A stretch of 53,205 nt of DNA from Myxococcota bacterium (GCA_036337845.1 JAYZDK010000098.1:1-53205); one strand, 5' to 3'; shown: positions 20,884 through 42,549, counted from the stretch's first letter. Notes: generated by a model from the letters alone, not told the origin. A program made the numbers and translations.

Positions 20884-22077
20884 TCAGCAGGCAACACGCT
20901 CCAAACACGCCAAGACATCCTTGGGCGGCACCACCTCCTTGAAATAGACCACCCGGCCCGGGAACTTCGAGAGGGCCTCTTTGGTTCCCGCAAGCTTCGT
21001 GGACACCGCCATCACCAGGTTCTTGGGCCCTCCCTTCTTCAAGAGCTTCATACGGCTCGAAAGCCAAGAGCGGCGCCAGAAGCCCACAATCTCAAGATGA
21101 GCCACCTTCCCATCCCGACTGAAGGTGAAGTCCGGAACCACCACCTGGTTGCCGCCAATGTCCAGAGCCACACCCTCACGGGTCAGGCTCCAGTCTGTCT
21201 CCAAGGCCTCAAAACGCTCCTGAAACCAGGTTTCTGTTTGAGTGATGTAGGCACCAGTGTCCCGGTAGTGCGACACCAGGCCAAGCGTGGAATCCAGCAC
21301 CAGGTGTTTTCGAAGATTGCGCCTCGTCCAATGGACTGTACCCTCCAACTCCCAGGGACACTCCTGTAGAAGAAGCGCTGGAAACCAGTTGGCGAGCGCC
21401 ATGCCGTAGCGAGTGCTCAAGCGCAACAGAGAAGCCGGTCCATCCAAGATTACAGAAATACCGCCTTCGGCCTTCTCCAGCCGATGCATCAACCCGTGAA
21501 ACTTCACAAAGCGAAACAACTGCCTCACCCGCTCGGGAGACGGGTCCGCCAGCCGCACTTCCATCTCCTGACAGCGCAGAAGAAGCGACTGCACCAACGC
21601 CACGTTGTAGCGATTCAGCAGCCAGTCGATGTCCCGCGCACCGAGCTTGAGAATCACCTGCTCCTGCTTGCGGTCCGCATAGAGCAAGCGCTGAACTTCT
21701 TCTGGAGCCAGGCCGATTTCTTCCGCGACCTGCGCGTAGACCTGGCGAGCAAAAGCCCTGGAAGGCGCACTGGAGGCCATCTCGAAGAGCCGCGCTCTCA
21801 GCTCGGGCGCGGGCACCGGAGGCTCGGTGGTGAACTTGGACGCATCCGAGAGCACCTTGGCCAGCCCCCGCACCAGCTTGTGGTCAATGCCATCCCCTAG
21901 AACCTCGTCGATCCCCGCCTTGAGTTCCCCCCGATTGGCTCCTGTTTCAAGTCCGGCCTGGTAGACCGAGAACACCGCTTGTGCGCGCTCGCGCACCTTG
22001 TCGTTCTCCGGGTCCACCAAGGAAGGCCGGAGTTCCTTTTTCTGCACCCGCGCACGCACGAGATCACCGGTAAGCAT
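20884..22077 (-). CDS. DUF790-family nuclease (Bax1-like partner of XPB)
   Basis: The N-terminus MLTGDLVRARVQKKELRPSLVDP is typical of DUF790/Bax1 proteins. The size (397 aa) and position immediately downstream of XPB, overlapping it by 14 nt, also fit. Confidence 0.7.
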   Translation of the reverse strand: MLTGDLVRARVQKKELRPSLVDPENDKVRERAQAVFSVYQAGLETGANRGELKAGIDEVLGDGIDHKLVRGLAKVLSDASKFTTEPPVPAPELRARLFEMASSAPSRAFARQVYAQVAEEIGLAPEEVQRLLYADRKQEQVILKLGARDIDWLLNRYNVALVQSLLLRCQEMEVRLADPSPERVRQLFRFVKFHGLMHRLEKAEGGISVILDGPASLLRLSTRYGMALANWFPALLLQECPWELEGTVHWTRRNLRKHLVLDSTLGLVSHYRDTGAYITQTETWFQERFEALETDWSLTREGVALDIGGNQVVVPDFTFSRDGKVAHLEIVGFWRRSWLSSRMKLLKKGGPKNLVMAVSTKLAGTKEALSKFPGRVVYFKEVVPPKDVLACLERVAC

Positions 22078-23425
22078 CGTGGTCCCGCCGTCGCTCAGAG
22101 GTCTTTTCTTCCACCGTATCCATGGTCACCAGCTCATAGAGCAGGGCCCGCTTGTCCTGGCCAGGCCTCAGAATCCGACCCAGCCTTTGAACGTGCTCTC
22201 GCACGGTCCCGCTGCCGGAGAGCACCACACCCACCTCGGCCTCGGGCATGTCCACGCCCTCGTTGAGTACCTTGGAGGTCACCACCACCTTCCAGCGCCC
22301 TTCGGAGAAACCCGCGAGCACCTCGCGACGCTCGGCGGCCGGAGTCTCGTGGGTGATGCAAGGCACCAGAAACTCCCTGGAAATCCGGTACACCGTGCGG
22401 TTGTCATTGGTGAACAAGAGCACACGGTTGTCCCGATGCCTGGCGAGAATGTCCTCCACCGCCTCGAGCTTGCCTCGCGCTTCGTGAATCACACGCCGGC
22501 TCTCCCGATGGGCCCGCAACGCAGCCCTGCCATCCTTGCTCCGGGCCGCCGTCCGCAGAAAACGCTGCCACCCCCCTGGCCCACCAATACGAATCCGCTT
22601 GGCTCCCAGAAAAGACAAATAGGTCTTACGGGCCGTCTCGTAGGCCACAGCCTCTTCTTCGGTCAGGGAAACCTCCACCCGAATGGTGTCGTAGTCGGCC
22701 AACACCTCGCCTGCGAACTCCCGGATTCCTCTCCGATACACCACCGGGCCCACCAGCCACTCCAGGGCCAGGTGCGCGTCATCCGGGCGCTCCGGGGTCG
22801 CGCTCAACCCCAATCGGAACGGTGCCACACACATCTCCGCAATCTGTGACCAGGCACCCGAGGGCAGATGGTGCACCTCGTCAAAGACCACCAACCCAAA
22901 CCGGTTTCCGTAGCGCTCCATGTGGATGTATGCGGAGTCGTAGGTGGAAACCGTGATCGGTCGCAACTCGTGCTGACCACCGCCCAGCATGCCAATCTCA
23001 CACTTGAAGGCCTTTTCCAGCACGCCCTGCCACTGGTTCACCAGGTCAATGGTGGGTGCCACCACCAGGGTGGCTCGGCGTGTATCCGCAATACACAACT
23101 CCGCGACATAGGTCTTTCCCGAGCCCGTCGGCAGAATCACCTGTCCTCGGCGGTTCGCACGTGTCCAGTGCTCAAGCGCTGCGAGTTGGTAGTCCCGAGG
23201 CTCGCGGTCGGTGTGATGCTCCAACACGTCAAAGCGCGGATAGTCCTGGACGTCGTCCTGGTAGGGCGTAGCAGTGTCATGGAGATTCTGGACAAAATCC
23301 CGATACTCAATCGCCATGGCACGAGCTGCACCCACCCGCTCATCCCATCGAAAATCCGGAGGAAGTTCTGCGGCGTCGAGGCCTTCGACCAAGAGCGTGC
23401 CTTTGTCGAAACGGACCGAAATCAT
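22064..23425 (-). CDS. xpb: XPB/ERCC3/Rad25-type SF2 DNA helicase
   Basis: N-terminal damage-recognition-like ISVRFDKGTLLVEGL. RDYQLAALEHW. Walker A ILPTGSGKT. DEVH box VVFDEVHHL. Motif VI HVQRLGRILR. Confidence 0.85.
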   Translation of the reverse strand: MISVRFDKGTLLVEGLDAAELPPDFRWDERVGAARAMAIEYRDFVQNLHDTATPYQDDVQDYPRFDVLEHHTDREPRDYQLAALEHWTRANRRGQVILPTGSGKTYVAELCIADTRRATLVVAPTIDLVNQWQGVLEKAFKCEIGMLGGGQHELRPITVSTYDSAYIHMERYGNRFGLVVFDEVHHLPSGAWSQIAEMCVAPFRLGLSATPERPDDAHLALEWLVGPVVYRRGIREFAGEVLADYDTIRVEVSLTEEEAVAYETARKTYLSFLGAKRIRIGGPGGWQRFLRTAARSKDGRAALRAHRESRRVIHEARGKLEAVEDILARHRDNRVLLFTNDNRTVYRISREFLVPCITHETPAAERREVLAGFSEGRWKVVVTSKVLNEGVDMPEAEVGVVLSGSGTVREHVQRLGRILRPGQDKRALLYELVTMDTVEEKTSERRRDHDAYR

Positions 23426-24015
23426 GAACGGGCGCTAGCGTCCTGGGAGAGATGATGCCGGAGCTTGGCTTGGAGATAGAGCGCATCGGCCGCATGAACC
23501 AAGAAGGCCGGAAGGGCCACAAACCTCAGCAGCGACTCATCCCGGTAGACAAAATAGAGCAGCAAGGGAAACGCCCCCGCAAAGCCGCCACGGAGCCCGA
23601 GGATCATCCCCACAATCACCAGTACAACCGGCCCGATTCCAGCGAGAGCATGGAGCCACTCCACCCCAATGTAGAACCAGGTACCCGGAAAGGTACGAGA
23701 CAACACAACCTGGCAGGCAAAGGAAACAATCAACATGCCCATCCATCGCGCCGGGGTCATCATCGGGGCGCGAACCGCGATGGACATGCGCAACAAGAAG
23801 GCCAGCGCTCCCACAGCAACAACCTGCCAGAACAAGCCTGACGCCAGTGTTTCCACGGGGATTTCCATGACCCGAGACACATCGGGCTCCCACAAGGGAA
23901 CACAGCCGGCCATGAGGCCAAGCCCGGCGGGCAACATCACCTGAAACCAACGCATGCTGGACACTCGCCTCTCCCTCTCCAGCGTATCACTGTGAGCACG
24001 AGTCGCCGATTGCAT
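23422..24015 (-). CDS. Hypothetical polytopic membrane protein, translationally coupled to xpb
   Basis: 197-aa ORF with ~5 hydrophobic segments. Its stop overlaps the xpb start by 4 nt (ATGA). The alternative start Met21 gives MRWFQVMLPAGLGLMAGC. No family recognised. Confidence 0.5.
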   Translation of the reverse strand: MQSATRAHSDTLERERRVSSMRWFQVMLPAGLGLMAGCVPLWEPDVSRVMEIPVETLASGLFWQVVAVGALAFLLRMSIAVRAPMMTPARWMGMLIVSFACQVVLSRTFPGTWFYIGVEWLHALAGIGPVVLVIVGMILGLRGGFAGAFPLLLYFVYRDESLLRFVALPAFLVHAADALYLQAKLRHHLSQDASARS

Positions 24016-24059
24016 CCGCCGAATCGAACCGTTAGCGTTTGTTCTAAGGAGCTTTTCGC

Positions 24060-24809
24060 ATGCGCTGGTCTCTCGTCACATTCCTGCCCTTTTGTTTGCT
24101 CGGTTGCCCGGTAGAAACCCCAACGGACATCACAAGCCGAGCCCCTTCCTTAGAAGGTGAAGAACCCGGGCCAGGCGATATGCCGCCTCCCAATGGAGCC
24201 GGCCCCCAAGAAGTCAACGCCGCCAAGTTCGTTCTGGACCCAGAAAACAGCATCGATATTTCAGGCATTCTGGACTATCCGGGGCAGAAAGAAGGCAAAC
24301 TGCTCGTCGAAGTACTCACCGTCACCGACGGCACCCCAGAGCTCAAGCACTCTGAGGTTTTTGAAAAGGCTGGAGACTTCACCATCGGTATGCCGAAAGC
24401 ACTCGGGAGCGTGCAACTCGTCGCGTTTGTGGACGTCGACGGGGACGGCCCCTCAGAACATGACCCTGCCGGAATGCTCCCGATTGAGGTCCAAGACGCC
24501 CCCGTGTCAGGACTTGTGCTGACCTTGAGCGACAACGCTGACCTCGGAAACCTCACCCCCGGAAAGGGCGCAGAGCAACCCCCGCCGGCAACCGACCAGG
24601 AGATCGCGCGCGACCGTGCATTCCTGGAGCATCGCGACGCGGACAAAGTCCCCAAAGGCCCAGAGAACCCCACAGCACCGGAAGGCGGTGATGCGGAAAA
24701 CGCACCTGAGAACGCGCCTCAAGGCCCCGCGCCAGACGGCACCATGCCCGAGGGCTCAGTGCCTGTACCGCCTCCGGCCGAGGGTGCCCCTCCCGAACAA
24801 GGAGACTAA
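24060..24809 (+). CDS. Hypothetical lipoprotein with a proline-rich C-terminus
   Basis: AAGGAG lies 9 nt upstream. MRWSLVTFLPFCLLGC lipobox. The C-terminal third is rich in P/E/G/A (PEGGDAENAPENAPQGPAPDG...). Confidence 0.55.
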   Translation: MRWSLVTFLPFCLLGCPVETPTDITSRAPSLEGEEPGPGDMPPPNGAGPQEVNAAKFVLDPENSIDISGILDYPGQKEGKLLVEVLTVTDGTPELKHSEVFEKAGDFTIGMPKALGSVQLVAFVDVDGDGPSEHDPAGMLPIEVQDAPVSGLVLTLSDNADLGNLTPGKGAEQPPPATDQEIARDRAFLEHRDADKVPKGPENPTAPEGGDAENAPENAPQGPAPDGTMPEGSVPVPPPAEGAPPEQGD

Positions 24810-25942
24810 CGAATCTTAAGGGTGGAAAGCGCAAGCGCGGCAAACAGGACGCTCACAATCCACATTCGAACCACAATCTTGCTTTCGGCGATACCCCGAT
24901 GCTGAAAGAGATGGTGAAGCGGCGCTGCGGCAAAGATACGCCGACCGGTTTTCAGCCCCACCTGTTCCTGTAGAGCCGAGCTTCCCAGTTCAATCAGAAA
25001 CACACCTCCGACGATGAACATCAAGGCTTCCTGCTTCAACAAGATAGCCACCGTCCCAAGCGCTCCTCCAAGCATCAGGGAGCCCATGTCTCCCATGAAC
25101 ACATCCGCTGGGTAGACGTTGAACCACAAAAACGCCAGACAAGCGCCCATCATCGCCGCACAGAACACCCCAATCTCACCGGAGCCCTGAAGGTAGGGGT
25201 ACAGGAGATATTCCGACCACTGAATGTTCCCGAGCATGTAGGCGAACACGCCCAGCACGGCGAAGGACAAGAGGCAAGGCACGGTCGTGAGACCGTCGAG
25301 TCCGTCGGTGAAGTTCACCGCGTTGGTACAGAACCCCAGAAAAAAAGCTGCCAGCCCCGCATAGAGAAAGGACAGGTTCCAGTAGGCATGGGGAAGAAAC
25401 GGCAGATACACCAGGTCCAGGCTCACCAGAGGAGCCTGTCGGAACGGAACGAAAACATCGCTGGCAAGGTCCAGGGGAAAGGGCGTCCACTCCGGATTCA
25501 CCACAATCATGCCCAATCCAGCCCCAAAACCAAGCTGAGCAATCAGCTTCAGGGGACGGGACATTCCTTTTTCCGCTCCGCCGCGCACCTTCATGACGTC
25601 ATCAATCGCACCCACCAGCCCAAACCAGGCCGATGCTGCAATACAAAGCCATACCGAAATCGAACTGAGGTCACACCAAAGCAGCGCACTGCCAATTCCA
25701 GCAATGAAGAGAATCAGGCCTCCCATCACCGGCGTTCCCACCTTGGAGCCGGTATCCATGGCCTGGTACTTGCGCTCCTTGGAGCGCATTCCCTTTCGAT
25801 AGAGCAGGTGAATCACCGGCCGCCCTACCAGGAGCCCTACGGCCATCGCCGTAATGAAGGCAAACAGCGCCCGGGAGGTCAGAAACCGAAGGATGGCCGG
25901 CCCACCGAGAGTCTCCACCACACCAGAAAACCAATAAATCAC
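24806..25942 (-). CDS. mraY: Phospho-N-acetylmuramoyl-pentapeptide transferase
   Basis: 378-aa 10-TM protein with MraY signatures: KxGTPVMGG (SKVGTPVMGGLI), NAVNFTDGLDGL, DVFMGDMGSLMLGGALG, APLHHLFQ. Confidence 0.9.
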   Translation of the reverse strand: MIYWFSGVVETLGGPAILRFLTSRALFAFITAMAVGLLVGRPVIHLLYRKGMRSKERKYQAMDTGSKVGTPVMGGLILFIAGIGSALLWCDLSSISVWLCIAASAWFGLVGAIDDVMKVRGGAEKGMSRPLKLIAQLGFGAGLGMIVVNPEWTPFPLDLASDVFVPFRQAPLVSLDLVYLPFLPHAYWNLSFLYAGLAAFFLGFCTNAVNFTDGLDGLTTVPCLLSFAVLGVFAYMLGNIQWSEYLLYPYLQGSGEIGVFCAAMMGACLAFLWFNVYPADVFMGDMGSLMLGGALGTVAILLKQEALMFIVGGVFLIELGSSALQEQVGLKTGRRIFAAAPLHHLFQHRGIAESKIVVRMWIVSVLFAALALSTLKIR

Positions 25943-28938
25943 CCTGCCTCCTCCCCGCGCAGTGCCAAGAGGTCGTTGTAGGCCTCCTTGAAGGAGTACC
26001 GGGTCTCAAAGCCATCACTGGTGCGCAACACCTTGCTCGCCTCATCCGCGGCTGTATCCGCATCGATCACACCGCGCTTGACGAGAAGCCCCAACGACTC
26101 AATCAACGCCACACGCACCTTCCAGCGAGCATCAAAGGACAGCTGCTCGGTGACAGAAGAAATGGTCTCCAAATCAGTCGCCACCCATCCAATCGCTCGC
26201 ACAGCCCGAGCCCGAGCCTCAAAGAAATCATCTTGGGTCATTTGGACGAGCACCGGAAGCAACTTCTTGAACTGTGCGGCATCGGCCTGGGCCTGGGCAA
26301 GGCCAGCAGAAGGATCGATGGCCATGGCCTGGTCGATTCCCCCAGCACCACCGATTGCCTGCGCGGCCTTGGCGCGAGCCTCGAAATAGGGGTCTGTAAG
26401 TCCGGCCTCAATGGCTTCTACCACTTCCGGCGTCACCACCCACAGGGATTGGAGACCGCGAAAGGCGTCCCTACGAACAATGGGTGGCTGATTCCATGCG
26501 CCCTCTGAGTTCCGGCCTGTCGCAAAAGAAAGCAACACATCCAAGCGCTCACGAAAGCCACCGTTACCCACCATTCGGCATCCACGAGCCCGAGACACGT
26601 AGTTCGATGCAGCCAGGTAGCCATCGATCTTGTAGAGAACCCGCGCATGCTCTTCGGGCTGCACCTGCTCTTCTCCCACTCGAACCGATCGAAGAAAGCG
26701 ATCGAGCTGATTCGAACTCAAACCCAGAATCCGCTCATCCTCTACACCGGTCGGCTCCGGAATCTGAGCCGAGGGTGCGCCGAGACAGAGGTGTTCGAGG
26801 ACATCCCCAATCCAAGGAAGCGTCCTGGGCTCAAATAAACCCAGCGCAGCAGCAGCCATGCTCTCATTGCGCTCCCGGTCGGAGAGCAGATCTCGGAGTG
26901 CTTGGGCAAGACACGCGGGATCTACCTGCTCTTGAACAATCCCCTCCCGCAAGCCAATGCTTTCGTAGACCACAATCACCGCACCTCGACGCTCCATGGA
27001 TCGAGCATTCGCTGCCTGGTGATCGCCGGGTAGGTTCGCCTTGGGAATAACAACGGCCGCCAGGCCATTGGCACAGACCTCGCTCAAGCTACCCGCCCCC
27101 CCCCGACAAACCACGACATCGGACGCCGCGTAGTGGGTGCCCATGTCATGAATAAACTCCGAGCGGCGATAGCGTGTGTGCACATCTGCAGGAAGCCCTT
27201 GAAGGTCTCGCAGCCTCCCCTCCACATCCTCCGCACCATCGTAGGTCCCACCCGCTAGGCGGCGACCCGTCCCATGCAGCACAAAGACATTGGGATCCCG
27301 CAAGAGCTCGGGCAGGATGTCGACCATCGCTCGATTCAGCGTCCTGGCCCCTTGGCTTCCTCCAAAAGCCAGAATCACGCGAGCATCCAGGGGAATCTCC
27401 AAGCGTTTCCGGGCTTCTGCCTGGCTGGTCGCCTCGGAACGAGACTCCACAACGCTTGGCCGAACCGGGTAGCCCACCCAGACCTTCTTCTCCGGCGGCA
27501 CACGCGTCTCCGGAAAAGCCACCCCCACCGAATCCGCAAACCGAGCCGCAAGCTGGTTGAGCCGTCCCGGCACCGCATTCTGCTCATGAATGAAGATACG
27601 CCCTCGAAACAACCCCATTGAACGCAACACATAGGCCGCAATCAGAATTGGAGCGGCACCGTAGCCCCCGGTGCCCACAATGACCTCGGGCCGAAACCGG
27701 AGCACCACAAAGAACGACACCACCACGCCCAATGAAAGCTCGTAGGCAAACCGAATCAAGCCCAGTGGAGACCCGGTTCCCGGATACCCCATGGATCGCA
27801 CAAAGGACAGCTGCCGGGACACCGGTGAAACCAGGTCTGCAGCCACCGGAATCCCAAGCCATGGCCAATCCGATAGCCAATGCCTTGCTTTGAGCACCTG
27901 CTCGACCCCTCGAATCACAAGGCGCACCACCATTCGGCCCAGCTGCCCCGGCGAAAGGTTGCGCAAGGAGACACTGCCCACCCGAGCTCCGCGCTTTCTG
28001 AGCTCTTCGAGTTCGGAGCCGGTGAGCCCCAAAGCACCATCGAACACCGTGCCACTGACCCACGCAGTCGAAAGATCAGCTCCCTTCATGCGAGCGTGTT
28101 CCAAGAGCGCCCCGGAAAGGTCTGAATCTCCGACTGAGGTTTCTCGGAGGTCCGACCCCGAGAGGTCTGCCAGTCCCATCACAGTCCCACCAAAGCTCGC
28201 ACCCCGAAGGTCCGCGCCCACCAAATGGGCCTGAGTGGCTCTAAGCTCACGCAAGTTTGCACCACAGAGAATCGCATCATCGAACCAGGCTCTCTCCGCA
28301 AAAGCCCCTCGAAGATCAGCGTCTCTCAGACGAGCGCCTTCCAACCGCGCCCCATCCAGCTTTGCACCCGCCAGACACGCCCCCGTCAGGTCCGAACGTT
28401 CCAGGTGTGCTCCTGTGAGGTCGCACCCCGACAAGTCCAAACCACTGAGGTCCACGCGATCGAGCTGTGCTCCAGCCAGGTCCATTCCAGGCCCCAACTC
28501 CCCCAAACCGAGTTCACCAACCGAGCGGATACCATCGAGAAACCCCTTGTCCTCCCCCGCTCCACGCAGAAACTCTCTGCGGCGGCGAAAAGGCCCCAAC
28601 ACGCGGGTGCTTATCCGTTCAACCCACTCCAGGAGTAACTGGACCTCATCCGCAGATCGGTCTCTCCGATGACTCCCATCACGAGCATTGGCCGGCCCCC
28701 AGCGTGAGTCATCCAACTCCCAGGCACGTCGCACCATGGAGTCCTCGGCTTTGCCCCGAATCCCCACATAAAGAAAGGCCGCGTCCGGATGACGACGACG
28801 GACTTCATCCGCAATCGCAAGATTCGGCGAAACATGCCCGCCCGTGCCTCCACCGGTAAACAGGACACGCCTGAGGCCTTCATTCGCTGTTGACACGGCC
28901 TCGTCCCATTCGATCCCGATACTCTCCAGCTTGTTCAA
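25939..28938 (-). CDS. murG: MurG-type GT28 glycosyltransferase with an internal pentapeptide-repeat-containing insertion and a C-terminal HEAT-like repeat extension (999 aa)
   Basis: GT28 motifs: VLFTGGGTGGHVSPNLAIA (aa 25-43), VIVGTGGYGAAP (aa ~419-430), IHEQNAVPG (aa ~450-458), ILAFGGSQGA, and CRGGAGSLSEV...PGDHQAANA. An insert sits between the first and second motif. It contains ~150 aa of A(D/N)LxG-type pentapeptide repeats (DLSGLDLSGCDLTGAHLERSDLTGACLAGAKLDGARLEGARLRDADLRGA..., nt ~28039-28488). Residues ~725-999 carry HEAT/PBS-like repeats (DPYFEARAKAAQAIG, DDFFEARARAVRAIGW, DARWKVRVALIESLG). The stop overlaps the mraY start by 4 nt. Confidence 0.85.
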   Translation of the reverse strand: MNKLESIGIEWDEAVSTANEGLRRVLFTGGGTGGHVSPNLAIADEVRRRHPDAAFLYVGIRGKAEDSMVRRAWELDDSRWGPANARDGSHRRDRSADEVQLLLEWVERISTRVLGPFRRRREFLRGAGEDKGFLDGIRSVGELGLGELGPGMDLAGAQLDRVDLSGLDLSGCDLTGAHLERSDLTGACLAGAKLDGARLEGARLRDADLRGAFAERAWFDDAILCGANLRELRATQAHLVGADLRGASFGGTVMGLADLSGSDLRETSVGDSDLSGALLEHARMKGADLSTAWVSGTVFDGALGLTGSELEELRKRGARVGSVSLRNLSPGQLGRMVVRLVIRGVEQVLKARHWLSDWPWLGIPVAADLVSPVSRQLSFVRSMGYPGTGSPLGLIRFAYELSLGVVVSFFVVLRFRPEVIVGTGGYGAAPILIAAYVLRSMGLFRGRIFIHEQNAVPGRLNQLAARFADSVGVAFPETRVPPEKKVWVGYPVRPSVVESRSEATSQAEARKRLEIPLDARVILAFGGSQGARTLNRAMVDILPELLRDPNVFVLHGTGRRLAGGTYDGAEDVEGRLRDLQGLPADVHTRYRRSEFIHDMGTHYAASDVVVCRGGAGSLSEVCANGLAAVVIPKANLPGDHQAANARSMERRGAVIVVYESIGLREGIVQEQVDPACLAQALRDLLSDRERNESMAAAALGLFEPRTLPWIGDVLEHLCLGAPSAQIPEPTGVEDERILGLSSNQLDRFLRSVRVGEEQVQPEEHARVLYKIDGYLAASNYVSRARGCRMVGNGGFRERLDVLLSFATGRNSEGAWNQPPIVRRDAFRGLQSLWVVTPEVVEAIEAGLTDPYFEARAKAAQAIGGAGGIDQAMAIDPSAGLAQAQADAAQFKKLLPVLVQMTQDDFFEARARAVRAIGWVATDLETISSVTEQLSFDARWKVRVALIESLGLLVKRGVIDADTAADEASKVLRTSDGFETRYSFKEAYNDLLALRGEEAG

Positions 28939-28988
28939 ACGATACCATGCGACCCTACATACGAGCCCCCGACACTGAGACCCCTCTG

Positions 28989-30152
28989 ATGTTCAGAAAC
29001 CTTCCACTAATCGTTCTTCTGTTGTCCGGGGGGGCCCAAGCAGGTGAACGTGCAGGCTTTCCGCATGGAGCCGAGCCGCTCCCGGAGGTCCACGAAGGGC
29101 CACGCCCCGAGGATCGCCCCTGTAATGTCGCATTCTCAGCGTGGGTACGACACCAAGAGCCTCCCGCCGCGCATCCTCCTAAGGCTGAAGGCTGGGGTTT
29201 CAGTGCAACACTGTTTCGAAGAATATTGGCGGTTGAAGAATCGACCCCATCCATGGTCCACACGTGGTGCATCGGTCGATCCGTTCAGGGCCGCCCCATC
29301 TGGGCCACTCGCATCGCACGACCGGACGCGCCGGTTGAGCACCGCATGTTGGTCTTTGCCCAGCTTCACGCACTCGAATGGATTGGCGCAGAGGTCGTCG
29401 TGGCTCTCGCAGAACGCCTAGGCCAACACACGCCAAAGGGAATCGAGATCGTGCTCGTACCTCTGGTGAATCCAGACGGCCGCCACCGGGCAGAGTCCGA
29501 CCTGCTTGAGGAACGCGAGGGTGTCTACAGACGCGCCAACACCAATGGCGTCGACCTCAATCGTGACTTCGCGGTCCACCGGGAATCCGACAATATCTGG
29601 AGCCGCCTTCCCTGGTTCCGACGCTACTACACAGCCAGTCCAGCACCTCTTTCACAACCAGAAACACGCGCACTGGACAAACTGGCCAGCACCGGGTTCG
29701 ACATCAGCGTGTCCCTGCACGCGTTTGGTGGCGTCATCTACTACCCCTGGGCTGGGATCAAAGATCCCATCGAGGATGCGGCGGCCCACCGGGCCATGGC
29801 TCGGATAATGGCCGCCGCGCAGCCTGGCCGGAGCTATCGCACCGTGCAGTTGGGCCGATACTTCAGGTGGTTTCGTGGGCTGGGAATGGAAATCGACCAC
29901 ATGTATGCCGTGCATGGCAGTCAAAGCTTTCTCATCGAATTGACGCGTTCGGGAATCCGGCCTCTGAGACCCAATACCTGGAAGGATTACTTCCGCTGGT
30001 ACAACCCGGTAGACCCCAGCCCCCACGTTGACGACGGCGTGACTGCACTTTGGGCGGCGATCACACACTACGCTTCTCAGGCCAGTTCCCAACAGGGCAC
30101 CGGGACCCACCCAACGATGCCCCAACTGCGACAGGAAATCCCCAGACCCTAG
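28989..30152 (+). CDS. M14-family zinc carboxypeptidase (secreted)
   Basis: The in-frame ATG at 28989 gives the signal peptide MFRNLPLIVLLLSGGAQA. Zinc and catalytic motifs: QLHALEWIG (HxxE), VPLVNPDG, NTNGVDLNRDF, VSLHAFGG. The track ORF starts at 28890 and would overlap murG. Confidence 0.8.
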   Translation: MFRNLPLIVLLLSGGAQAGERAGFPHGAEPLPEVHEGPRPEDRPCNVAFSAWVRHQEPPAAHPPKAEGWGFSATLFRRILAVEESTPSMVHTWCIGRSVQGRPIWATRIARPDAPVEHRMLVFAQLHALEWIGAEVVVALAERLGQHTPKGIEIVLVPLVNPDGRHRAESDLLEEREGVYRRANTNGVDLNRDFAVHRESDNIWSRLPWFRRYYTASPAPLSQPETRALDKLASTGFDISVSLHAFGGVIYYPWAGIKDPIEDAAAHRAMARIMAAAQPGRSYRTVQLGRYFRWFRGLGMEIDHMYAVHGSQSFLIELTRSGIRPLRPNTWKDYFRWYNPVDPSPHVDDGVTALWAAITHYASQASSQQGTGTHPTMPQLRQEIPRP

Positions 30153-35848: not shown

Positions 35849-35970
35849 AGGATTCTACTTACCACGGGTTGCAGCCAGGGCTACGTCCTATATCCTTTGC
35901 TGGCGATGTTTTTCCTGTGCAGTTTGGCTTCCAAGCTGGATTTGTTCAATCCCCATCCCGACATGTTTTT

Positions 35971-38900
35971 ATGAGTAGCGCCAACCGCCTGATCGGTGCC
36001 GAGGTCGGCTCCTATACCGTTGTCGACCGACTCGGTCAGGGGGGAATGGCCACCGTGTTTGAGGTCAAACACAAGGAAACCGGCGCCACGCGAGCCTTGA
36101 AGCTGATTCATCCAGGCGTTCAAGATGAAGAAGCGATGACGCGGTTCAATGCCGAGTTTCAGGTGCTCTCTCAACTCAGCCATCCCAACATCACCCGAGT
36201 GTTGGAAGCCGGGTCCTGGAATGACCAGTCCTACTTCGTCATGGAAAAGCTGCAGGGTCAGGACCTGCGCTCCGAGGTGAAGTCCTGGAAAGACATCCCT
36301 CCGGCCGAGCGCTTTTCGAGGACCGAGAACATTCTGGTTCAACTCGTCGGCGCATTGGCCTACATCCATGACCGGGGCTTGATTCACCGGGACGTGTCCC
36401 CCAGCAACATCATGGTGGCTCCAGATGGCTCCGTAAAGCTCATGGACTTCGGCGTGGTGAAGGCACCTGGCCGAGAGGTCACAGCCGTAGGTGAAATGGT
36501 CGGAACTGTGGCCTACATGGCACCCGAACAGATCTCCGGTGACGAGGTGGACTCCAGAGCCGACCTGTACTCTCTGGGAACCGTTCTCTACTTGATGCTC
36601 ACCGGAAAGCGCCCGTTCAACGCACGCACACTCGCCGGATACCTGGAGAAGCACCTGAACCTCCCCCCCCGTCCACCGCGCGAGGTCGACCCGTTTGTTC
36701 CGGCCCGCCTCGACAACATCTGCTTGCGCCTCCTGGAGAAGTCGCCCAGAGACCGCTTTGGTTCGGCGAACCACCTGCTGGCCATACTGGATCGCCACCT
36801 CGCGGGCTTGGAACACATCGATCTCTCGTGCTGGCCCCCTCGCCTGGTCGGTCGGACCAGTGCGACTGCGCACCTTCTGGAAGGCCTTTCCAACGTCTCA
36901 GCGGGTCGGGGAAGCGCCCTGGTTATCGAAGGGACCGCCGGGTTTGGAAAGTCGCGTTTGCTGGCCGACGTGATGGAGCGCGCAATGGAGAGAAACCTCC
37001 CGGTTTCCTCTCACATCTGCATTCCGGACAAGCGTGAGTACGGAGCATTTCAAGAAATCGTCGAATCCCTGGAGCCTGACCGGTCTCAGCTTCCTCCTGC
37101 GTTGATTACCGCTTTTTTTGACGGCGAAAGCGAAGTGGAACGCTACGCGGTGCACGCCGCTGTCCGGGATTTGTTGCGAGAGAAAGGACCACGAGTCTTG
37201 GTACTCGATGACCTTGATAGCGCAGACCGCGGTAGCCAGGAGCTTTTGGTATTTCTCCTCCGCAATCATCTTGAACTCGCCAACGATCCTATTTTGTTCG
37301 TGCTGGCCCGCTGCCCACCCTCCAGCCTCGACATCTTTGCAGACATGCTCTCCGACGAAGACTTCGAATTCGAGCGGGTTCGGCTCCAACATCTGGGCAT
37401 CACCGATGTCGAAGAGCTTCTCGCCCAGTTGATTCCAGCAGACGATAGAGGCAGAAAACTCGCGGAACGGCTGCAGAGAGAGGGAGAAGGCAACCCCACA
37501 TTCATCGCCGAGATGATTCGCGGACTGGTCGAAGAAGGCATCATCCAGATCACGGAGGAGGATGTCTATGAGCTGACCATTCCCATGGAGGAGCTGACGC
37601 GGATTCAACTGCCTCTGCCCACCAACATTCGGGAAGCACTTCGAGAGAGACTGCTGCCTCTATCCAAGAAGGCGCGAGCCTTTGCCTGTATGCTCGCAAT
37701 CTGCAGACAAGAAGTCACGCTGGAGTTGATGATCGAGACCCTTGGGGAAACCGAGGATGACGCACTCGATCGTGTCGAGGAGCTTCTCAATGCAGGCGTC
37801 GCACGGCAACGAACTGCGGGTACCGATGAACTATTCGTGCTCTCTCGACCCCGACTCCGAGACCTGCTCCTCGAAGAAATGGGACCGGAGAACCGCGCCA
37901 TCCTTCACCGGCGAGCCGGTAGCGCGATGGAGCGGATCTTCAGACATCGAGTGGCCATGGTCGTAGACGAGTTGGCCTGGCATTTCGAACAAGGACAAAT
38001 CCCCGCAAAGGCCTACCCCTACCTCATTCGAGCCGGCGAGCGATTGCAGGCGCGTTCTTTCGTCCCGGAAGCCCTGGAGTGCTACGAACGAGCCCTCTCC
38101 ATCGAAGCGGAAGCCCGTGAATTCCTAGTCTTGGATGACGCCGACCGAAGACTCGCCGATCTTCGACTTAAACGCGGGCTGGCCCTCTACCACATGGGGG
38201 CTTGGACCCAAGCCTGTGAAGAACTGGAGCGCTCAGACAGCCTGGCCAGGACCCTCGAAGATGCGAGGCTCCAATGTCGAACGGCCTGTGAGTTGGGCAA
38301 CTTCTTCCGCAGACAGCACCGCCTGGACGAGGCCTCCACCAATCTATCCGAAGCCTTGCTTCTCGCGGATCGTGTCGGTGATCCCAAGCTTCGGGTGGGT
38401 CCCCTGCACGGACTGGCGAGCCTGCACTGGTCCCGGGGAGACCTCGACGCCTCTCGACGGTACTCCCTGGATTGCCTGACGGTGGCCGGAAACATCGGTG
38501 ATGACCGTGCTCTAGGAGACGGCTACAACGGGCTGGGGCTTGTGGCTATCTGCCGTGGCCAGTCCGCGGAAGCTCGCAAATACCTCGATCAGGCAATTCA
38601 GATTTTCGAACGCCTCGGGGTAATCAGTGCCCTGGCTGTGACGCGAATCAACCTGGCCGAGCTTTCTCAATGTACCGGGAATCTACGCAAAGCAATGCAG
38701 CTTGCGGACAAGACCATTGCGCAAGCCCGAGAAGTGCAACACCTGATGGGAATCGCCTTGGGGCTGCGCTACCGATCCATGGTTCTTGTAGACCTGGGCC
38801 GCCTCCCTGATGCCGAAGACAATGCCCGAGAAGCACTTCGGATCACCCAGGAAATCGGAGATGTGGAAGATGAACTCGGCGCACTGATCAGCCTGGTTCG

Positions 38901-39402
38901 AATCCGCCTGGCCAAGGCGCACTATGGAGAGGCCCAGAACGAGCTTGCACGCGCATTGAGCCTGGCCGAGTCCTGTGACGTGGAAGGCTACATGCCCTTG
39001 TTGTGGTCCTGGCTATCCAGATGTCAGGCCGAGCAGGGCTATCTCACGGAAGCCGTGTCCTCACTGGAGCGCGCGAACAACGTTGTCGGTCGAGCCTGGC
39101 CTCACCAACTCTGCCGACTGCACATCACCTCCGCCAGAGCCTTGGCCGCCGCAGGCAAGACCGAGGAAGCCGCAGAACGAGCCGAGCAAGGACTACAACT
39201 CGCAGACGCCTCCGGTTACCGACTCTATGCACTCAAGGCACATACAATCATCGCCGACACAACCAGCAGCCAAGCCAACGAAGCCATGCATCGCCGTGTG
39301 GCTCACGCACTCGCTCGTTCCTTGTCTGCGAACCTGTCACGTGACGATGCCTCCTCCTTCCTCGCCCAATATGGAATCGCCCACCCAGGGGCCTCAGAAT
39401 GA
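35971..39402 (+). CDS. Ser/Thr protein kinase fused to a STAND/AAA_16-type ATPase and TPR repeats (paralogue 1)
   Basis: The ATG at 35971 gives MSSANRLIGAEVGSYTVVDRLGQGGMATVF. VAIK-like RALKL, catalytic loop HRDVSPSN, DFG (LMDFG), APE (YMAPE). Intact Walker A GTAGFGKS at 36931-36954. The C-terminal ~500 aa are TPR-like. Confidence 0.9.
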   Translation: MSSANRLIGAEVGSYTVVDRLGQGGMATVFEVKHKETGATRALKLIHPGVQDEEAMTRFNAEFQVLSQLSHPNITRVLEAGSWNDQSYFVMEKLQGQDLRSEVKSWKDIPPAERFSRTENILVQLVGALAYIHDRGLIHRDVSPSNIMVAPDGSVKLMDFGVVKAPGREVTAVGEMVGTVAYMAPEQISGDEVDSRADLYSLGTVLYLMLTGKRPFNARTLAGYLEKHLNLPPRPPREVDPFVPARLDNICLRLLEKSPRDRFGSANHLLAILDRHLAGLEHIDLSCWPPRLVGRTSATAHLLEGLSNVSAGRGSALVIEGTAGFGKSRLLADVMERAMERNLPVSSHICIPDKREYGAFQEIVESLEPDRSQLPPALITAFFDGESEVERYAVHAAVRDLLREKGPRVLVLDDLDSADRGSQELLVFLLRNHLELANDPILFVLARCPPSSLDIFADMLSDEDFEFERVRLQHLGITDVEELLAQLIPADDRGRKLAERLQREGEGNPTFIAEMIRGLVEEGIIQITEEDVYELTIPMEELTRIQLPLPTNIREALRERLLPLSKKARAFACMLAICRQEVTLELMIETLGETEDDALDRVEELLNAGVARQRTAGTDELFVLSRPRLRDLLLEEMGPENRAILHRRAGSAMERIFRHRVAMVVDELAWHFEQGQIPAKAYPYLIRAGERLQARSFVPEALECYERALSIEAEAREFLVLDDADRRLADLRLKRGLALYHMGAWTQACEELERSDSLARTLEDARLQCRTACELGNFFRRQHRLDEASTNLSEALLLADRVGDPKLRVGPLHGLASLHWSRGDLDASRRYSLDCLTVAGNIGDDRALGDGYNGLGLVAICRGQSAEARKYLDQAIQIFERLGVISALAVTRINLAELSQCTGNLRKAMQLADKTIAQAREVQHLMGIALGLRYRSMVLVDLGRLPDAEDNAREALRITQEIGDVEDELGALISLVRIRLAKAHYGEAQNELARALSLAESCDVEGYMPLLWSWLSRCQAEQGYLTEAVSSLERANNVVGRAWPHQLCRLHITSARALAAAGKTEEAAERAEQGLQLADASGYRLYALKAHTIIADTTSSQANEAMHRRVAHALARSLSANLSRDDASSFLAQYGIAHPGASE

Positions 39403-42400
39403 GACCTCCGGTCACCCCTCCCAAAGTCGGCGATACCCTCGGGGAATACACCCTGGAGAGCCGATTGGGAGCAGGCGGGAATGCAACCGTATTCCGCGCC
39501 AAGGACTCCGATGGAAACACCGTAGCCCTCAAAGTGCTCCATCCAGGTCACCTGTCCGATGAAGACCTCGGCCGATTCAAAAGGGAATATGAAGCCCTCC
39601 AGCTCATCGATCATCCTCAGATCGTCCACGTGTATCGAACCGGGGAAATGGACGGGCAGCGCTGGCTGGCCATGGAGTATATCGACGGAGTCGATCTGGG
39701 CACGCTAGCCGAGAGATGGCAAACCAATCCTCCGGAAGACCGCTGGGAACAATCCGAAAAGATCTTTCGCGGCTTATGCCACGCCCTGATCTACCTGCAC
39801 GGAAAAGGCATCGTGCATCGGGACATCAAGCCTTCCAACGTCCTGGTAGACAAAAACGGCGTGCCCAAACTGATGGACTTCGGTGTGGTCAAGGCACCCG
39901 ACGTCTTCAGTACGGCACTGACCGTAGCGGGCAGGCTTGTCGGCACTGTTGCGTTCATGTCGCCCGAGCAGATTACCGGTGAACCAGTAGACAAACGAAC
40001 AGACCTCTACTCCCTCGGAGCTGTCCTCTACGTACTACTGACAGGCAAACGCCCGATCATCGCAGACACCATTGCAGCCTACCTGGCCCGACAACTGTCC
40101 CAGGAACCCAGACGCCCCGCACTCATCGACCCACAGGTGCCAGCCATTCTGGATCGTATCTGTACCCGGCTTCTGAGAAAGGAGTCCTCTCAGCGATTTG
40201 CCTCTGCAGAAGAAGTGCTCTCCGCTCTCGACAGCGGGGAAGCCGACGAACGGCCTCCCCTCTACGGGAGAGACTCCGCTAGCGGAAGAATCCGAGCACT
40301 ACTGGACCTCTTGGAGGATGGCGGATGCCATGTCCTGGGACTCGTGGGCAAGAAGGGAGCCGGACTCTCGGCGATGATTCGAGAGGCTCAAGCTCAAGCT
40401 CAAGAGCAAGGCCGTGCATTCAGCGTTGTCGACCCCCAAAAAGGCTTGGCAGAGGCCGTCTCCAGAAGACCCGAGACAGGTCCCTGGCTCCTGCTTGCTG
40501 ACGGACTGGACCGCATCCCAGAATGGGAGGTGCGCGACCTTTCCACACTATTCGATGCGCCCAAGAACCCGATCGGGCTGATCTTCACCGCCCAAGCTCA
40601 TACGGGCGAAATGGAGTTGACCATACGAAACCTGGGCGTTCGGGAGCTTCTTGCGCTGCCCTTTGCTCGCACAGAGCTCCTGCCTCCCCTGGACCGTGGA
40701 GACATCATCTCTCTCTTGAGAGACCGAGGACTCTCCTCGACCGTCGCAGCCCTGTTGGGAAAGCGTCTGCACGAAGAGTTCGGCGGTTATCCAGCGCTGT
40801 TGGTCGAACAACTCGACGCCCTAGTCAACGAAGGCTGGCTCGAACGAAAGGACTCCGGGGGACTGAAACCCGCACAAAAGCTCGACCGTCTCCGCAAAGA
40901 CCCCCTCCCTCTACCCGAAGCCGTTCGCATCGAGTTGGAACACTCTCTAATGGGCCTGGAGGCCGAGGAGCGCTCGCAACTCATGCTGTTGGCAGTCCTG
41001 GGTGGGGAAGCCTCCACCGACCTTCTGGGACGACTGGCTGGATTGGGTGTCGATCGATTGGGGCGTCTACAAAGAAACGGGCTTGTAGAAGTACAGGAAG
41101 AAGGTCTCCACAAGCTGATGAAGCTCTCCAGTCCAAGACTGAGGCAAGTACTGCTAGAAGACCTCAAGCCCAGCGAACGAGCACGATTGCACCTAGAAGT
41201 AGCCGAAGCCCTGGCCACCACAAACCCGCGACGCCTCGGCCCGCTCGCAGAGGTTGTCGCCGAGCACTTTCTATCCGCAAACTGTCCGGCCCGAGCATGG
41301 CCCTTACTGGTAGAAGCCGCACAGCGGGGAATTCGTAGAAATCACTTCCCCCAAGTACTCAGCCTGACTCGCAGAGCACTCGAGGCCGCGGACTCCATGG
41401 ATACGGCCCCCCTCGATGCCGAGACAACCGCGCTACACCAGAGAACCCTCTCGCTTAGGGGTCGTGCAATGCTGGCCACAGGCCGCTTTCACGAGGCCCG
41501 CAATTGTCTGAAAGAAGCTCTGGAGATCGGCCTTTCCACAGAAGGCCGTGAAGGACGAAACACCCGAGCCGCGCTGGGAGCAGCCCTGGTAGAGACCGCC
41601 GAGAGCGAAGAGGCGGCCATCATCTTGGAACCACTCCTGGAGGAACTCGAGCCCGGAGACCCCGTAAGGTTTCAAACCGTGCGGGCCTTAGGCCATGCCA
41701 TGCGTCTCCAAGGCCGCCTCGAAGAAGCACTACAGGTTTGGGAAAATGGCTGCGAAGCCGCTCGCCAGCAGGGGCTACTGGAACAAGAAGGCCTATGTCT
41801 TCTCGGATTTGGCCAGACCCTCAAGATCGCCGGCCGTCTTCCAGAAGCTCGAAAGTCACTCCAATCCGCCGAAAATCGCCTCCGTGTTCGAGACTCCAGA
41901 GAGTTGGCGAGTTGTCTTGTGGAACTCGGGGATCTGGATCTCCTGGATGGCTCCTATCGACGCGCACTGGCCCGGGCAGAAGACGCCAGCGCCATCGCAC
42001 AACAAATCGATGACCTCGGCCTATCCGCTGACAGTCTGGTTCTCTGTGCTTCCGCATTGGAAGCGGTGGGCATGGAACGTGATGCTCGCCGCCTGTCTGC
42101 AGAGGCCGATGGACTCCGCCGCGCCCAAGAAGCCGAGGGCCCACTACCAACCTCCAGCATCATTCCCGCTCACGACCAAGTTCGCACCGCCATCTCCGAA
42201 GCTCACCAATACATGTCCACGGACAATTCGGAAGCCGCGCAGGAATGCCTGGAAGCCGCCATCCAAAATCTTCCCGAGAGCGGATGCCGGGGATTGGAAC
42301 TTCAAGTCACTGCAAGGCTCGCGAAACTATCGGAAAATCAGGTGTATCGAGAGCGAGCTACTGAACTGGCCCGCGTGATCATGGACACTCTGCCCCCCGA

Positions 42401-42452
42401 GCTCGCTGCAGCATTTGGCGCAAGAGAAGAGCTCGCGGAGTTACTGGGGTAG
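39399..42452 (+). CDS. Ser/Thr protein kinase fused to a STAND-like module (degenerate P-loop) and TPR repeats (paralogue 2)
   Basis: ATGA overlap with paralogue 1. GAGGNATVF, VALKV, HRDIKPSN, LMDFG, FMSPE. The Walker A position reads GKKGAGLS (40347-40370). Confidence 0.9.
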   Translation: MRPPVTPPKVGDTLGEYTLESRLGAGGNATVFRAKDSDGNTVALKVLHPGHLSDEDLGRFKREYEALQLIDHPQIVHVYRTGEMDGQRWLAMEYIDGVDLGTLAERWQTNPPEDRWEQSEKIFRGLCHALIYLHGKGIVHRDIKPSNVLVDKNGVPKLMDFGVVKAPDVFSTALTVAGRLVGTVAFMSPEQITGEPVDKRTDLYSLGAVLYVLLTGKRPIIADTIAAYLARQLSQEPRRPALIDPQVPAILDRICTRLLRKESSQRFASAEEVLSALDSGEADERPPLYGRDSASGRIRALLDLLEDGGCHVLGLVGKKGAGLSAMIREAQAQAQEQGRAFSVVDPQKGLAEAVSRRPETGPWLLLADGLDRIPEWEVRDLSTLFDAPKNPIGLIFTAQAHTGEMELTIRNLGVRELLALPFARTELLPPLDRGDIISLLRDRGLSSTVAALLGKRLHEEFGGYPALLVEQLDALVNEGWLERKDSGGLKPAQKLDRLRKDPLPLPEAVRIELEHSLMGLEAEERSQLMLLAVLGGEASTDLLGRLAGLGVDRLGRLQRNGLVEVQEEGLHKLMKLSSPRLRQVLLEDLKPSERARLHLEVAEALATTNPRRLGPLAEVVAEHFLSANCPARAWPLLVEAAQRGIRRNHFPQVLSLTRRALEAADSMDTAPLDAETTALHQRTLSLRGRAMLATGRFHEARNCLKEALEIGLSTEGREGRNTRAALGAALVETAESEEAAIILEPLLEELEPGDPVRFQTVRALGHAMRLQGRLEEALQVWENGCEAARQQGLLEQEGLCLLGFGQTLKIAGRLPEARKSLQSAENRLRVRDSRELASCLVELGDLDLLDGSYRRALARAEDASAIAQQIDDLGLSADSLVLCASALEAVGMERDARRLSAEADGLRRAQEAEGPLPTSSIIPAHDQVRTAISEAHQYMSTDNSEAAQECLEAAIQNLPESGCRGLELQVTARLAKLSENQVYRERATELARVIMDTLPPELAAAFGAREELAELLG

Positions 42453-42549
42453 TAGTTCACCCCTAGTCTCGGATAGGCTGGGTGCGTTACTCGAGGCACC
42501 TGTGGCCCAACAGGACCCCCCCGGACAAGACGTCACCGCCCACCTTCAA

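Follow-up and report, generated by a model that had tools for sequence, protein, structure and literature searches.

The window analysed here is a stretch of 53,205 nucleotides (nt) from an uncultured Myxococcota bacterium (GCA_036337845.1, JAYZDK010000098.1:1-53205), and it encodes a glycosyltransferase of the MurG family in which the N-terminal Rossmann domain is interrupted, in frame, by a segment that carries pentapeptide repeats. MurG is an essential and well-studied enzyme that is an antibiotic target. The presence of an in-frame pentapeptide-repeat insert in the N-domain of this MurG-family protein is confirmed. Taken as a whole, the data are best explained by a genuine domain insertion, known so far from one lineage, which is tolerated by a host enzyme that retains catalysis and in which the repeat rod would serve as a partner-binding or spacer surface; this explanation is considered likely.

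The gene is a single unbroken open reading frame (ORF) on the minus strand (25939-28938), encoding 999 amino acids (aa) from a TTG start. The NCBI call for the same protein (P0001) uses a GTG start at 28896, is 14 codons shorter (985 aa) and carries the name 'pentapeptide repeat-containing protein [Myxococcota bacterium]'. In a Pfam search, Glyco_transf_28 (PF03033, 74.2 bits) was matched in two stretches around the insert, the second at aa 394-472, with the pentapeptide families PF00805 (E=6e-27) and PF13576 (E=4e-13) between both pieces, followed by Glyco_tran_28_C (PF04101) at aa 521-698 (82.5 bits, E=4.7e-23) and by HEAT_2 (PF13646) close to the C-terminus. An initial annotation of this DNA had described one uninterrupted ORF with coherent MurG sequence on both sides of the insert. 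This is supported by the 999-aa frame, by the alignments of relatives and by the mapping with hidden Markov models (HMMs), in which the split Glyco_transf_28 encloses the repeats and precedes Glyco_tran_28_C. The HEAT tail (aa ~730-999), the location outside the dcw gene cluster and the overlapping mraY-type gene were missing from that annotation. The features of the gene and its downstream partner are:

25939-28938, minus strand: whole ORF, a glycosyltransferase family 28 (GT28) protein of the MurG family with an internal pentapeptide insert and a HEAT tail (ORF call, Pfam).
28705-28872, minus strand: first part of the GT28 N-domain, aa 23-78, with beta1, the G-loop GGTGGH, alpha1, beta2 and alpha2 (family HMM; AlphaFold2, AF2).
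27817-28704, minus strand: insert, aa 79-374, 296 aa and 888 nt (alignments with relatives).
28486-28704, minus strand: linker 1, aa 79-151 (composition, AF2, homology searches).
28036-28485, minus strand: pentapeptide-repeat core, aa 152-301, 30 repeats (PF00805, register count, AF2, Foldseek).
27817-28035, minus strand: linker 2, aa 302-374 (composition, AF2).
27439-27816, minus strand: rest of the GT28 N-domain, aa 375-~500, with beta3, the hydrophobic alpha3, GTGGY and HEQN (aa 451-454) (Pfam, family HMM, AF2).
26845-27378, minus strand: GT28 C-terminal UDP-GlcNAc-binding domain, aa 521-698, with GGSQGAR and GDHQxxNA (PF04101, alignment to 3S2U).
25942-26751, minus strand: HEAT alpha-solenoid tail, aa ~730-999 (PF13646, AF2, relatives).
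24806-25942, minus strand: MraY-type phospho-MurNAc-pentapeptide translocase gene (PF00953, TIGR00445).

The motifs GGTGGH (aa 30-35) and GTGGY (aa 422-426) are spaced by 393 residues in the window protein, compared to 91-107 residues (median 94) in 117 relatives, which agrees with the ~390 versus ~90 aa estimated initially. Columns 5-55 of the family HMM match aa 23-73 with 81 bits, and the whole protein scores 723.9 bits. The motifs GGTGGH, GGY, HEQN, GGSQGAR and DHQxxNA align to Pseudomonas aeruginosa MurG (3S2U) and are invariant within the subfamily to which the host belongs. In addition, of the 79 positions with a conservation of 90% or more in relatives, 78 are kept, the sole exception being a change from leucine to valine.

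When aligned with 11 and with 63 relatives, the window protein has its extra sequence between '...RRAWELDDS' and 'RQLSFVRS', at aa 79-374. The ~300-aa in-frame insertion of the initial annotation stands, and its bounds, given there as 27814-28725, are shifted by a few codons to 27817-28704. At the insertion point two orthologues read '...RRAWDLE(Q/K)PE-RALSFVRS'. The AF2 secondary structure puts the insertion between alpha2 and beta3, in a surface loop of the N-terminal Rossmann domain. Among the 63 relatives (alignment A3), internal insertions of at least 15 aa were found in only two proteins: P0092 has 17 aa in the same loop, counted as an insertion run, and P0022 has 40 aa after the equivalent of aa 499. 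In the other subfamily members checked, the loop that is replaced by the insert has 3-15 residues. From these alignments, the alpha2-beta3 loop looks like a permissive site.

Within the insert, the core (aa 152-301) is made up of 30 consecutive pentapeptides in an unbroken single register, with a hydrophobic centre in 28 of the 30; its position, nt 28036-28485, is close to the nt ~28039-28488 first proposed for ~30 repeats. The core is acidic (net charge -10, pI 4.55). Both linkers are basic and Arg-rich, as had been noted at the outset, with a K+R content of 14/73 and a pI of 10.4 in linker 1 and 10/73 and 11.2 in linker 2, and their net charges of +2 and +4 are complementary to that of the rod. 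A long amphipathic helix of 36 residues is predicted in linker 1 (aa 94-129, nt 28552-28659), and one of 26 residues in linker 2 (aa 330-355, nt 27874-27951), after which a Trp-rich stretch, HWLSDWPWLG, is found. Ranked by hydrophobic moment, the first and the fourth window of the 999-aa protein lie within these two helices, the first in that of linker 2.

Weak self-similarity of the DNA was observed in 28034-28422 at a spacing of 240 nt, equal to 80 aa, 16 repeats or 4 coils; 28072-28113 and 28312-28353, for example, are 76% identical. This hints at an old duplication of a four-coil block during growth of the beta-helix, or could merely be due to the shared repeat motif. At the end of the insert, a duplicated beta2-alpha2 unit was suggested by phmmer matches to MurG proteins in the PDB ('WLGIPVAADLV' vs 'WLGT...DLVPK'), and this candidate was rejected as it has no support from the family HMM. 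The family HMM match after the insert begins at column 50, so that six columns (50-55, 'ivpkag') are matched twice, by 'MVRRAW' (aa 68-73, nt 28720-28737) and by 'LVSPVS' (aa 369-374, nt 27817-27834). No DNA-level repeat was seen at the insert junctions, and the double match in the protein sequence could be due to chance or to a very short junction duplication from the insertion event.

Structures were predicted with AF2, using alignment A3 (MurG relatives) for the full protein and alignment A4 (pentapeptide-repeat proteins) for the insert. The full-length model has a predicted template modelling score (pTM) of 0.74, and its block-mean predicted local distance difference test (pLDDT) is ~90 or more at aa 21-70 and from ~aa 381, except for a low stretch at aa ~861-890. 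The N-terminal flank has a pLDDT of 93-97, with strands at 24-28 and 54-59 and helices at 33-49 and 64-73. The canonical order of elements is kept in the model: beta1 (24-28), alpha1 (33-49), beta2 (54-59), alpha2 (64-73), the insert, beta3 (375-379), alpha3 (391-415) and beta4 (419-422). The HEAT tail is all-helical with a pLDDT above 90. When the full-length model was compared with the PDB using Foldseek, the best matches were the MurG proteins of Escherichia coli and P. aeruginosa (E 2e-13, target-normalised TM 0.69-0.75). With ~355 columns, these alignments do not reach across the 296-aa insert and therefore directly confirm the post-insert part only, so that the integration of the N-terminal flank rests on the AF2 confidence and on the order of the secondary structure elements. 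The flanks and the remainder of the protein are confidently modelled as one MurG-like GT-B fold, in line with the single GT28 fold that had been assumed for them.

When the insert was modelled alone, a pLDDT of 93-98 was obtained over insert residues ~70-220, with a short strand or bridge every 5 residues. The top Foldseek matches of this model are designed beta-solenoids, HetL, Np275/276 (TM 0.70), Qnr and MfpA, with a probability of 1.00 for 2J8K, 3DU1, 2XTW and 2BM5. From these models, we infer that the repeat core folds as a right-handed quadrilateral beta-helix of about 7.5 coils; a right-handed beta-helix had also been predicted in the initial annotation.

Apart from P0001, no protein with the whole insert was found in the collections searched. 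A search with the whole protein against 5.8 billion protein clusters returned P0001 with 2179 bits and a runner-up with 992 bits, and a Pentapeptide domain is present in none of the 119 other relatives listed from this search. The nearest relatives (P0002-P0004) have 65-67% identity, are 706-716 aa long and lack the insert. Two syntenic orthologous loci, L001 (GCA_964610645.1) and L002, with 65-66% identity, both lack it as well. These loci share with the window an M14 peptidase, an ABC transporter and DUF4340 upstream and an MraY-type gene downstream, and the neighbouring proteins are 56-87% identical; L001, which extends further than L002, also has the XPB helicase and DUF790/Bax1. A protein search of genome contigs yielded one orthologue, which is insert-free, and a protein scan of the Joint Genome Institute (JGI) metagenome contigs gave no match to the insert-bearing protein; P0001 has no entry in the gene-position index.

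In an exhaustive HMMER search with the insert against 1.84 billion representative proteins, P0001 was the sole match over residues 1-296 among the matches listed. The best stretches of all other listed matches fall within about 40-266 of the insert, mostly 70-230, which is essentially the repeat core, and when the insert was compared by BLAST with the 120 best stand-alone pentapeptide-repeat proteins, again the repeat core only was aligned. Since the linkers have no homologue in these HMMER and BLAST searches, they are orphan sequence and no donor gene can be identified; a local donor was also not found by tblastn in the window or in L001-L003. A word-index protein search with the insert returned generic pentapeptide-repeat proteins only, and as it missed P0001 despite 100% identity, which the exhaustive HMMER search recovered, it is weak evidence for repeat-rich queries. 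A joint MAFFT alignment of MurG relatives and stand-alone pentapeptide-repeat proteins was discarded, because the repeat proteins were aligned onto the MurG parts and not onto the insert. In the literature searched, nothing specific was found on a MurG with a large N-domain or pentapeptide-repeat insertion, on a HEAT-tailed MurG or on a MurG-MurJ fusion, in agreement with the initial statement that no described MurG with such an insertion was known. The insert is so far a one-off and not a widespread or already annotated lineage feature, and the combination of a known MurG-family GT-B enzyme with a known pentapeptide domain is new to the literature searched.

The host enzyme was initially taken to be MurG. 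Its assignment to the GT28 MurG family stands, as it has both GT28 domains, the signature motifs and the GT-B fold, whereas the view of it as a plain dcw MurG does not. Its score for TIGR01133 (murG) is 183.3 bits, below the equivalog cut-off of 250.25, it has a HEAT tail and its gene lies in a non-dcw context. Insert-free relatives also score below this cut-off (P0003 201.6, P0008 186.6 and P0059 220.1 bits). A C-terminal HEAT/alpha-solenoid tail of ~300 aa is present in all relatives (P0002-P0120), which come from Myxococcota, Latescibacteria, Eisenbacteria, KSB1, Fermentibacteria and Aminicenantes. The Aminicenantes relatives (~1260 aa, e.g. P0059) contain a fused MurJ flippase domain, which separates their GT28 part from the HEAT tail. 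On sequence criteria, the host belongs to a distinct HEAT-tailed MurG subfamily, characterized by GT28 N- and C-domains, the HEAT tail and an adjacent downstream MraY-type gene, all of which are present in the window, and is not the MurG of the dcw cluster.

The gene downstream contains PF00953 and scores 252.7 bits for TIGR00445 (mraY), above the equivalog cut-off of 192. Its GTG start overlaps the stop of the murG-like gene by 4 nt, and the murG-like gene is translationally coupled to it. In every context examined (the window, L001, L002, L003, L004/L005, L006 and L007, covering Myxococcota, Latescibacteria and Aminicenantes), an MraY-type gene directly follows the murG-like gene, often with a 4-nt overlap, and no other dcw genes are found near the pair. 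The neighbours of the murG-like gene in the window are the M14 peptidase, the mraY-type gene, XPB/Bax1 and the ABC transporter, and besides the mraY-type gene, the window ORFs scanned include no further mur or fts gene. Judged from the neighbouring MraY-type gene and from the fusions to MurJ in relatives, the subfamily likely makes a lipid II-type product. The host enzyme most likely transfers GlcNAc from UDP-GlcNAc to lipid I, which would yield a lipid II-type intermediate. No paper on the HEAT-tailed subfamily or its MraY/MurJ module was found in the literature searched.

Compared to canonical MurG (E. coli 1F0K/1NLM, P. aeruginosa 3S2U), the window protein has both GT28 domains, the same motifs, a predicted GT-B fold and an MraY-type neighbour. 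It differs in its identity of about 28%, its score below TIGR01133, its non-dcw location, its ~300-aa HEAT tail and the 296-aa insert, located at a loop (alpha2-beta3) that is just a few residues long in canonical MurG. With the other members of the HEAT-tailed subfamily, which are annotated as 'glycosyltransferase' or MurG, it shares the domain order, the HEAT tail and the overlapping MraY-type partner, but it is the only member checked that has the insert.

DNA-mimic members of the pentapeptide-repeat proteins are acidic-surfaced, like the repeat core described here. The insert resembles pentapeptide-repeat proteins such as Np275/276 (2J8K), HetL (3DU1), MfpA/Qnr and the beta-helix domain of NleL (3NB2) in its A(D/N)LxG-type repeats and its predicted quadrilateral beta-helix. 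Unlike in these proteins, it is neither a stand-alone nor a terminal domain, and its flanking helices are orphan. Its scores are well below the NCBIfam cut-offs for HetL (73.7 vs 260) and Qnr (26.5 vs 240), and with 22-55 bits against cut-offs of 240-500 it does not belong to the Qnr/MfpA families. Its identity is at most 46% to stand-alone pentapeptide-repeat proteins in the word-index search, and up to 49% over stretches of giant repeat proteins in the HMMER search.

Some precedents have been described for MurG-like paralogues and for domain gains in this pathway. MglA and other MurG-like paralogues of Streptomyces and Kitasatospora are encoded outside dcw and can act as lipid II synthase beside canonical MurG (PMC8092295). 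The window protein is like them in its GT28 N- and C-domains and its gene location outside dcw; it comes from another phylum, and by their description they are set apart from it, as no HEAT tail or pentapeptide insert has been reported for them. Natural Mur chimeras, MurG-MurC, MraY-MurG and MurE-MurF, have also been described and provide a precedent for precursor enzymes that gain domains by gene fusion (PMC10214165). In those chimeras two pathway enzymes are joined end to end, whereas here a non-enzymatic repeat domain is located inside a Rossmann domain.

Some points weigh against a genuine and tolerated insertion. The insert is found in one metagenome-assembled genome (MAG) only, P0001 forms a one-member protein cluster, and the exact 27-mer of the junction is absent from the JGI metagenome contigs. 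In the full-length AF2 model the insert has low confidence and its orientation is thus not fixed, and the linker helices reach a pLDDT of only ~60 in the model of the insert. A canonical MurG elsewhere in the genome could, in addition, make this copy dispensable and the insert neutral or even inactivating. The single assembly and one-member cluster, together with the absence of the junction from the other collections searched and the lack of homologues of the linkers, also favor an assembly chimera, in which a fragment of an unrelated pentapeptide-repeat gene was joined into a murG-like gene during metagenome assembly or binning. Such a chimera would, however, need two in-frame junctions exactly at the only length-variable loop of that half-domain, and its 888 nt would have to be free of stops in the frame of the host and encode the repeats in that frame. 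No shared repeat that could seed a mis-join is found at the junctions. The composition of the insert also matches that of the host: the GC fractions at the three codon positions are 0.72/0.52/0.62 for the insert and 0.69/0.47/0.64 for the remainder of the gene, the codon preferences agree with those of the host gene, including its GCC-poor and GGG-rich deviation from the window average, and the tetranucleotide distance of the insert is at the 64th percentile of equal-sized windows. The contig also runs collinear with L001 and L002 to either side of the murG-like gene, and a chimera is considered very unlikely.

The insertion could also be real and yet neutral or disabling, in a redundant paralogue that carries a functionless captured domain while a canonical dcw MurG does the essential job. 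This would fit with a host subfamily that is encoded outside dcw and does not reach the MurG equivalog cut-off, with the MurG-like paralogues documented beside canonical MurG in actinomycetes (PMC8092295) and with an insert that is a singleton without conserved relatives. Decay of the gene is not what was observed, however: the ORF is intact across 999 codons, the conserved positions are retained with the one exception mentioned, and its stop still overlaps the mraY start by 4 nt, as it does in L001. The register is unbroken in 30 of 30 units and the centre is hydrophobic in 28 of 30, and the fully host-like composition indicates that the insert is not very recent. No tandem DNA repeat was found in the insert, and repeats without tandem DNA repetition point to old and diverged sequence. 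A functionless domain in a redundant copy is therefore regarded as unlikely. The precise in-frame break of a conserved domain could also be expected of a self-removing element (an intein or intron) or of the remnant of a mobile element, in which case the mature protein would be an ordinary MurG-like enzyme. No Hint, LAGLIDADG, HNH or transposase domain was found with Pfam at E<=0.1, no Rfam family (intron or other RNA) in the whole window, and no terminal direct or inverted repeats at the insert. The insert begins with R-W-G and ends with V-S followed by R, without a terminal H-N and without a nucleophile after the C-terminal junction, which makes it unsuitable as an intein. The initial annotation had likewise seen no hallmarks of inteins or mobile elements, and the probability of such an element is next to nil.

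A genuine insertion into a functional host is also consistent with the position of the insert. In a Rossmann domain, the alpha2-beta3 connection is located at the sheet end opposite the ligand-binding loops, which in GT-B enzymes is away from the inter-domain cleft. Because this loop is distal to the cleft and is the only length-variable loop of that half-domain among relatives, the insert is presumably tolerated and catalysis retained. The order of modules would be a basic amphipathic helix, an acidic beta-helix of 30 repeats, and a second basic amphipathic helix with the Trp-rich stretch. The chain of a beta-solenoid enters at one end and leaves by the other, and since 7.5 coils at ~4.8 Å would put the ends ~36 Å apart, an inserted solenoid needs return connections. 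Both ends are probably led back to the insertion point by the two long Arg-rich helices, which would either follow the acidic rod or form a paired stalk. With 36 and 26 residues they are long enough for this return, and their charge is complementary to that of the rod. Alternatively, the helices and the Trp-rich stretch may act as in-plane membrane anchors. The insert may also lie on the membrane-facing or MraY-facing side of the enzyme, as the initial annotation had proposed. Pentapeptide-repeat domains generally act as rigid protein-binding or spacer surfaces. By analogy, the exposed rod may be such a surface, recruiting or sterically positioning a partner where lipid II is made, and would not be catalytic.

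A further-reaching proposal is that the HEAT-tailed MurG and its private MraY, with the fused MurJ found elsewhere, form a dedicated parallel pathway to a lipid II-type product, in which the beta-helix is a docking or regulatory module. The acidic, DNA-mimic-like beta-helix would then tie the pathway to a cytoskeletal, divisome or nucleoid-associated partner, or gate the access of lipid I. This proposal is tentative and quite unlikely to hold.

Other genes in the window were also compared. Two small ORFs are located between mraY and the XPB helicase gene (window 23422-24805), and neither has a Pfam or NCBIfam match:

23422-24015, minus strand: 197-aa hydrophobic ORF, apparently with multiple membrane spans (4-nt overlap with the XPB start).
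24060-24809, plus strand: 249-aa ORF with a lipoprotein-like signal (…CLLGC…) (sequence).

The ~1.4-kb stretch with both ORFs is absent from L001, in which just 2 nt separate the stop of mraY from the start of XPB; it is a second lineage-specific gain beside the same operon. An XPB-type helicase (XPB_DRD, ResIII and Helicase_C) is paired with a DUF790/Bax1-like nuclease at 20884-23425. Both are well below the NCBIfam equivalog cut-offs, and the pair is conserved beside the murG-like gene and mraY in L001. The M14 zinc carboxypeptidase gene (28890-30152) is divergent from the murG-like gene, and its position is conserved in both L001 and L002. Among named families, the peptidase resembles just the murein tripeptide amidase MpaA, and weakly so (19.8 bits vs a cut-off of 157), and a link to cell-wall recycling is possible but unsupported. 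At 35869-45996, three consecutive genes encode large Ser/Thr protein kinases of 1177, 1017 and 1193 aa with TPR regions, two of them with AAA_16. Large Ser/Thr kinase genes of this kind are typical of Myxococcota, and L001 contains, at its edge, a counterpart of the first of the three with 74% identity.

If the window protein is active, it would be a naturally occurring graft of a solenoid repeat domain into a GT-B fold, and the alpha2-beta3 loop would mark a permissive site for the engineering or tagging of MurG-family enzymes. If the beta-helix does prove to be a docking module, it would be the first pentapeptide-repeat domain to control a cell-wall precursor enzyme. The module of the host subfamily, HEAT-tailed MurG with MraY and at times a MurJ fusion, is maybe a more useful lead than the insert itself, as it may represent a second route to lipid II-like precursors.

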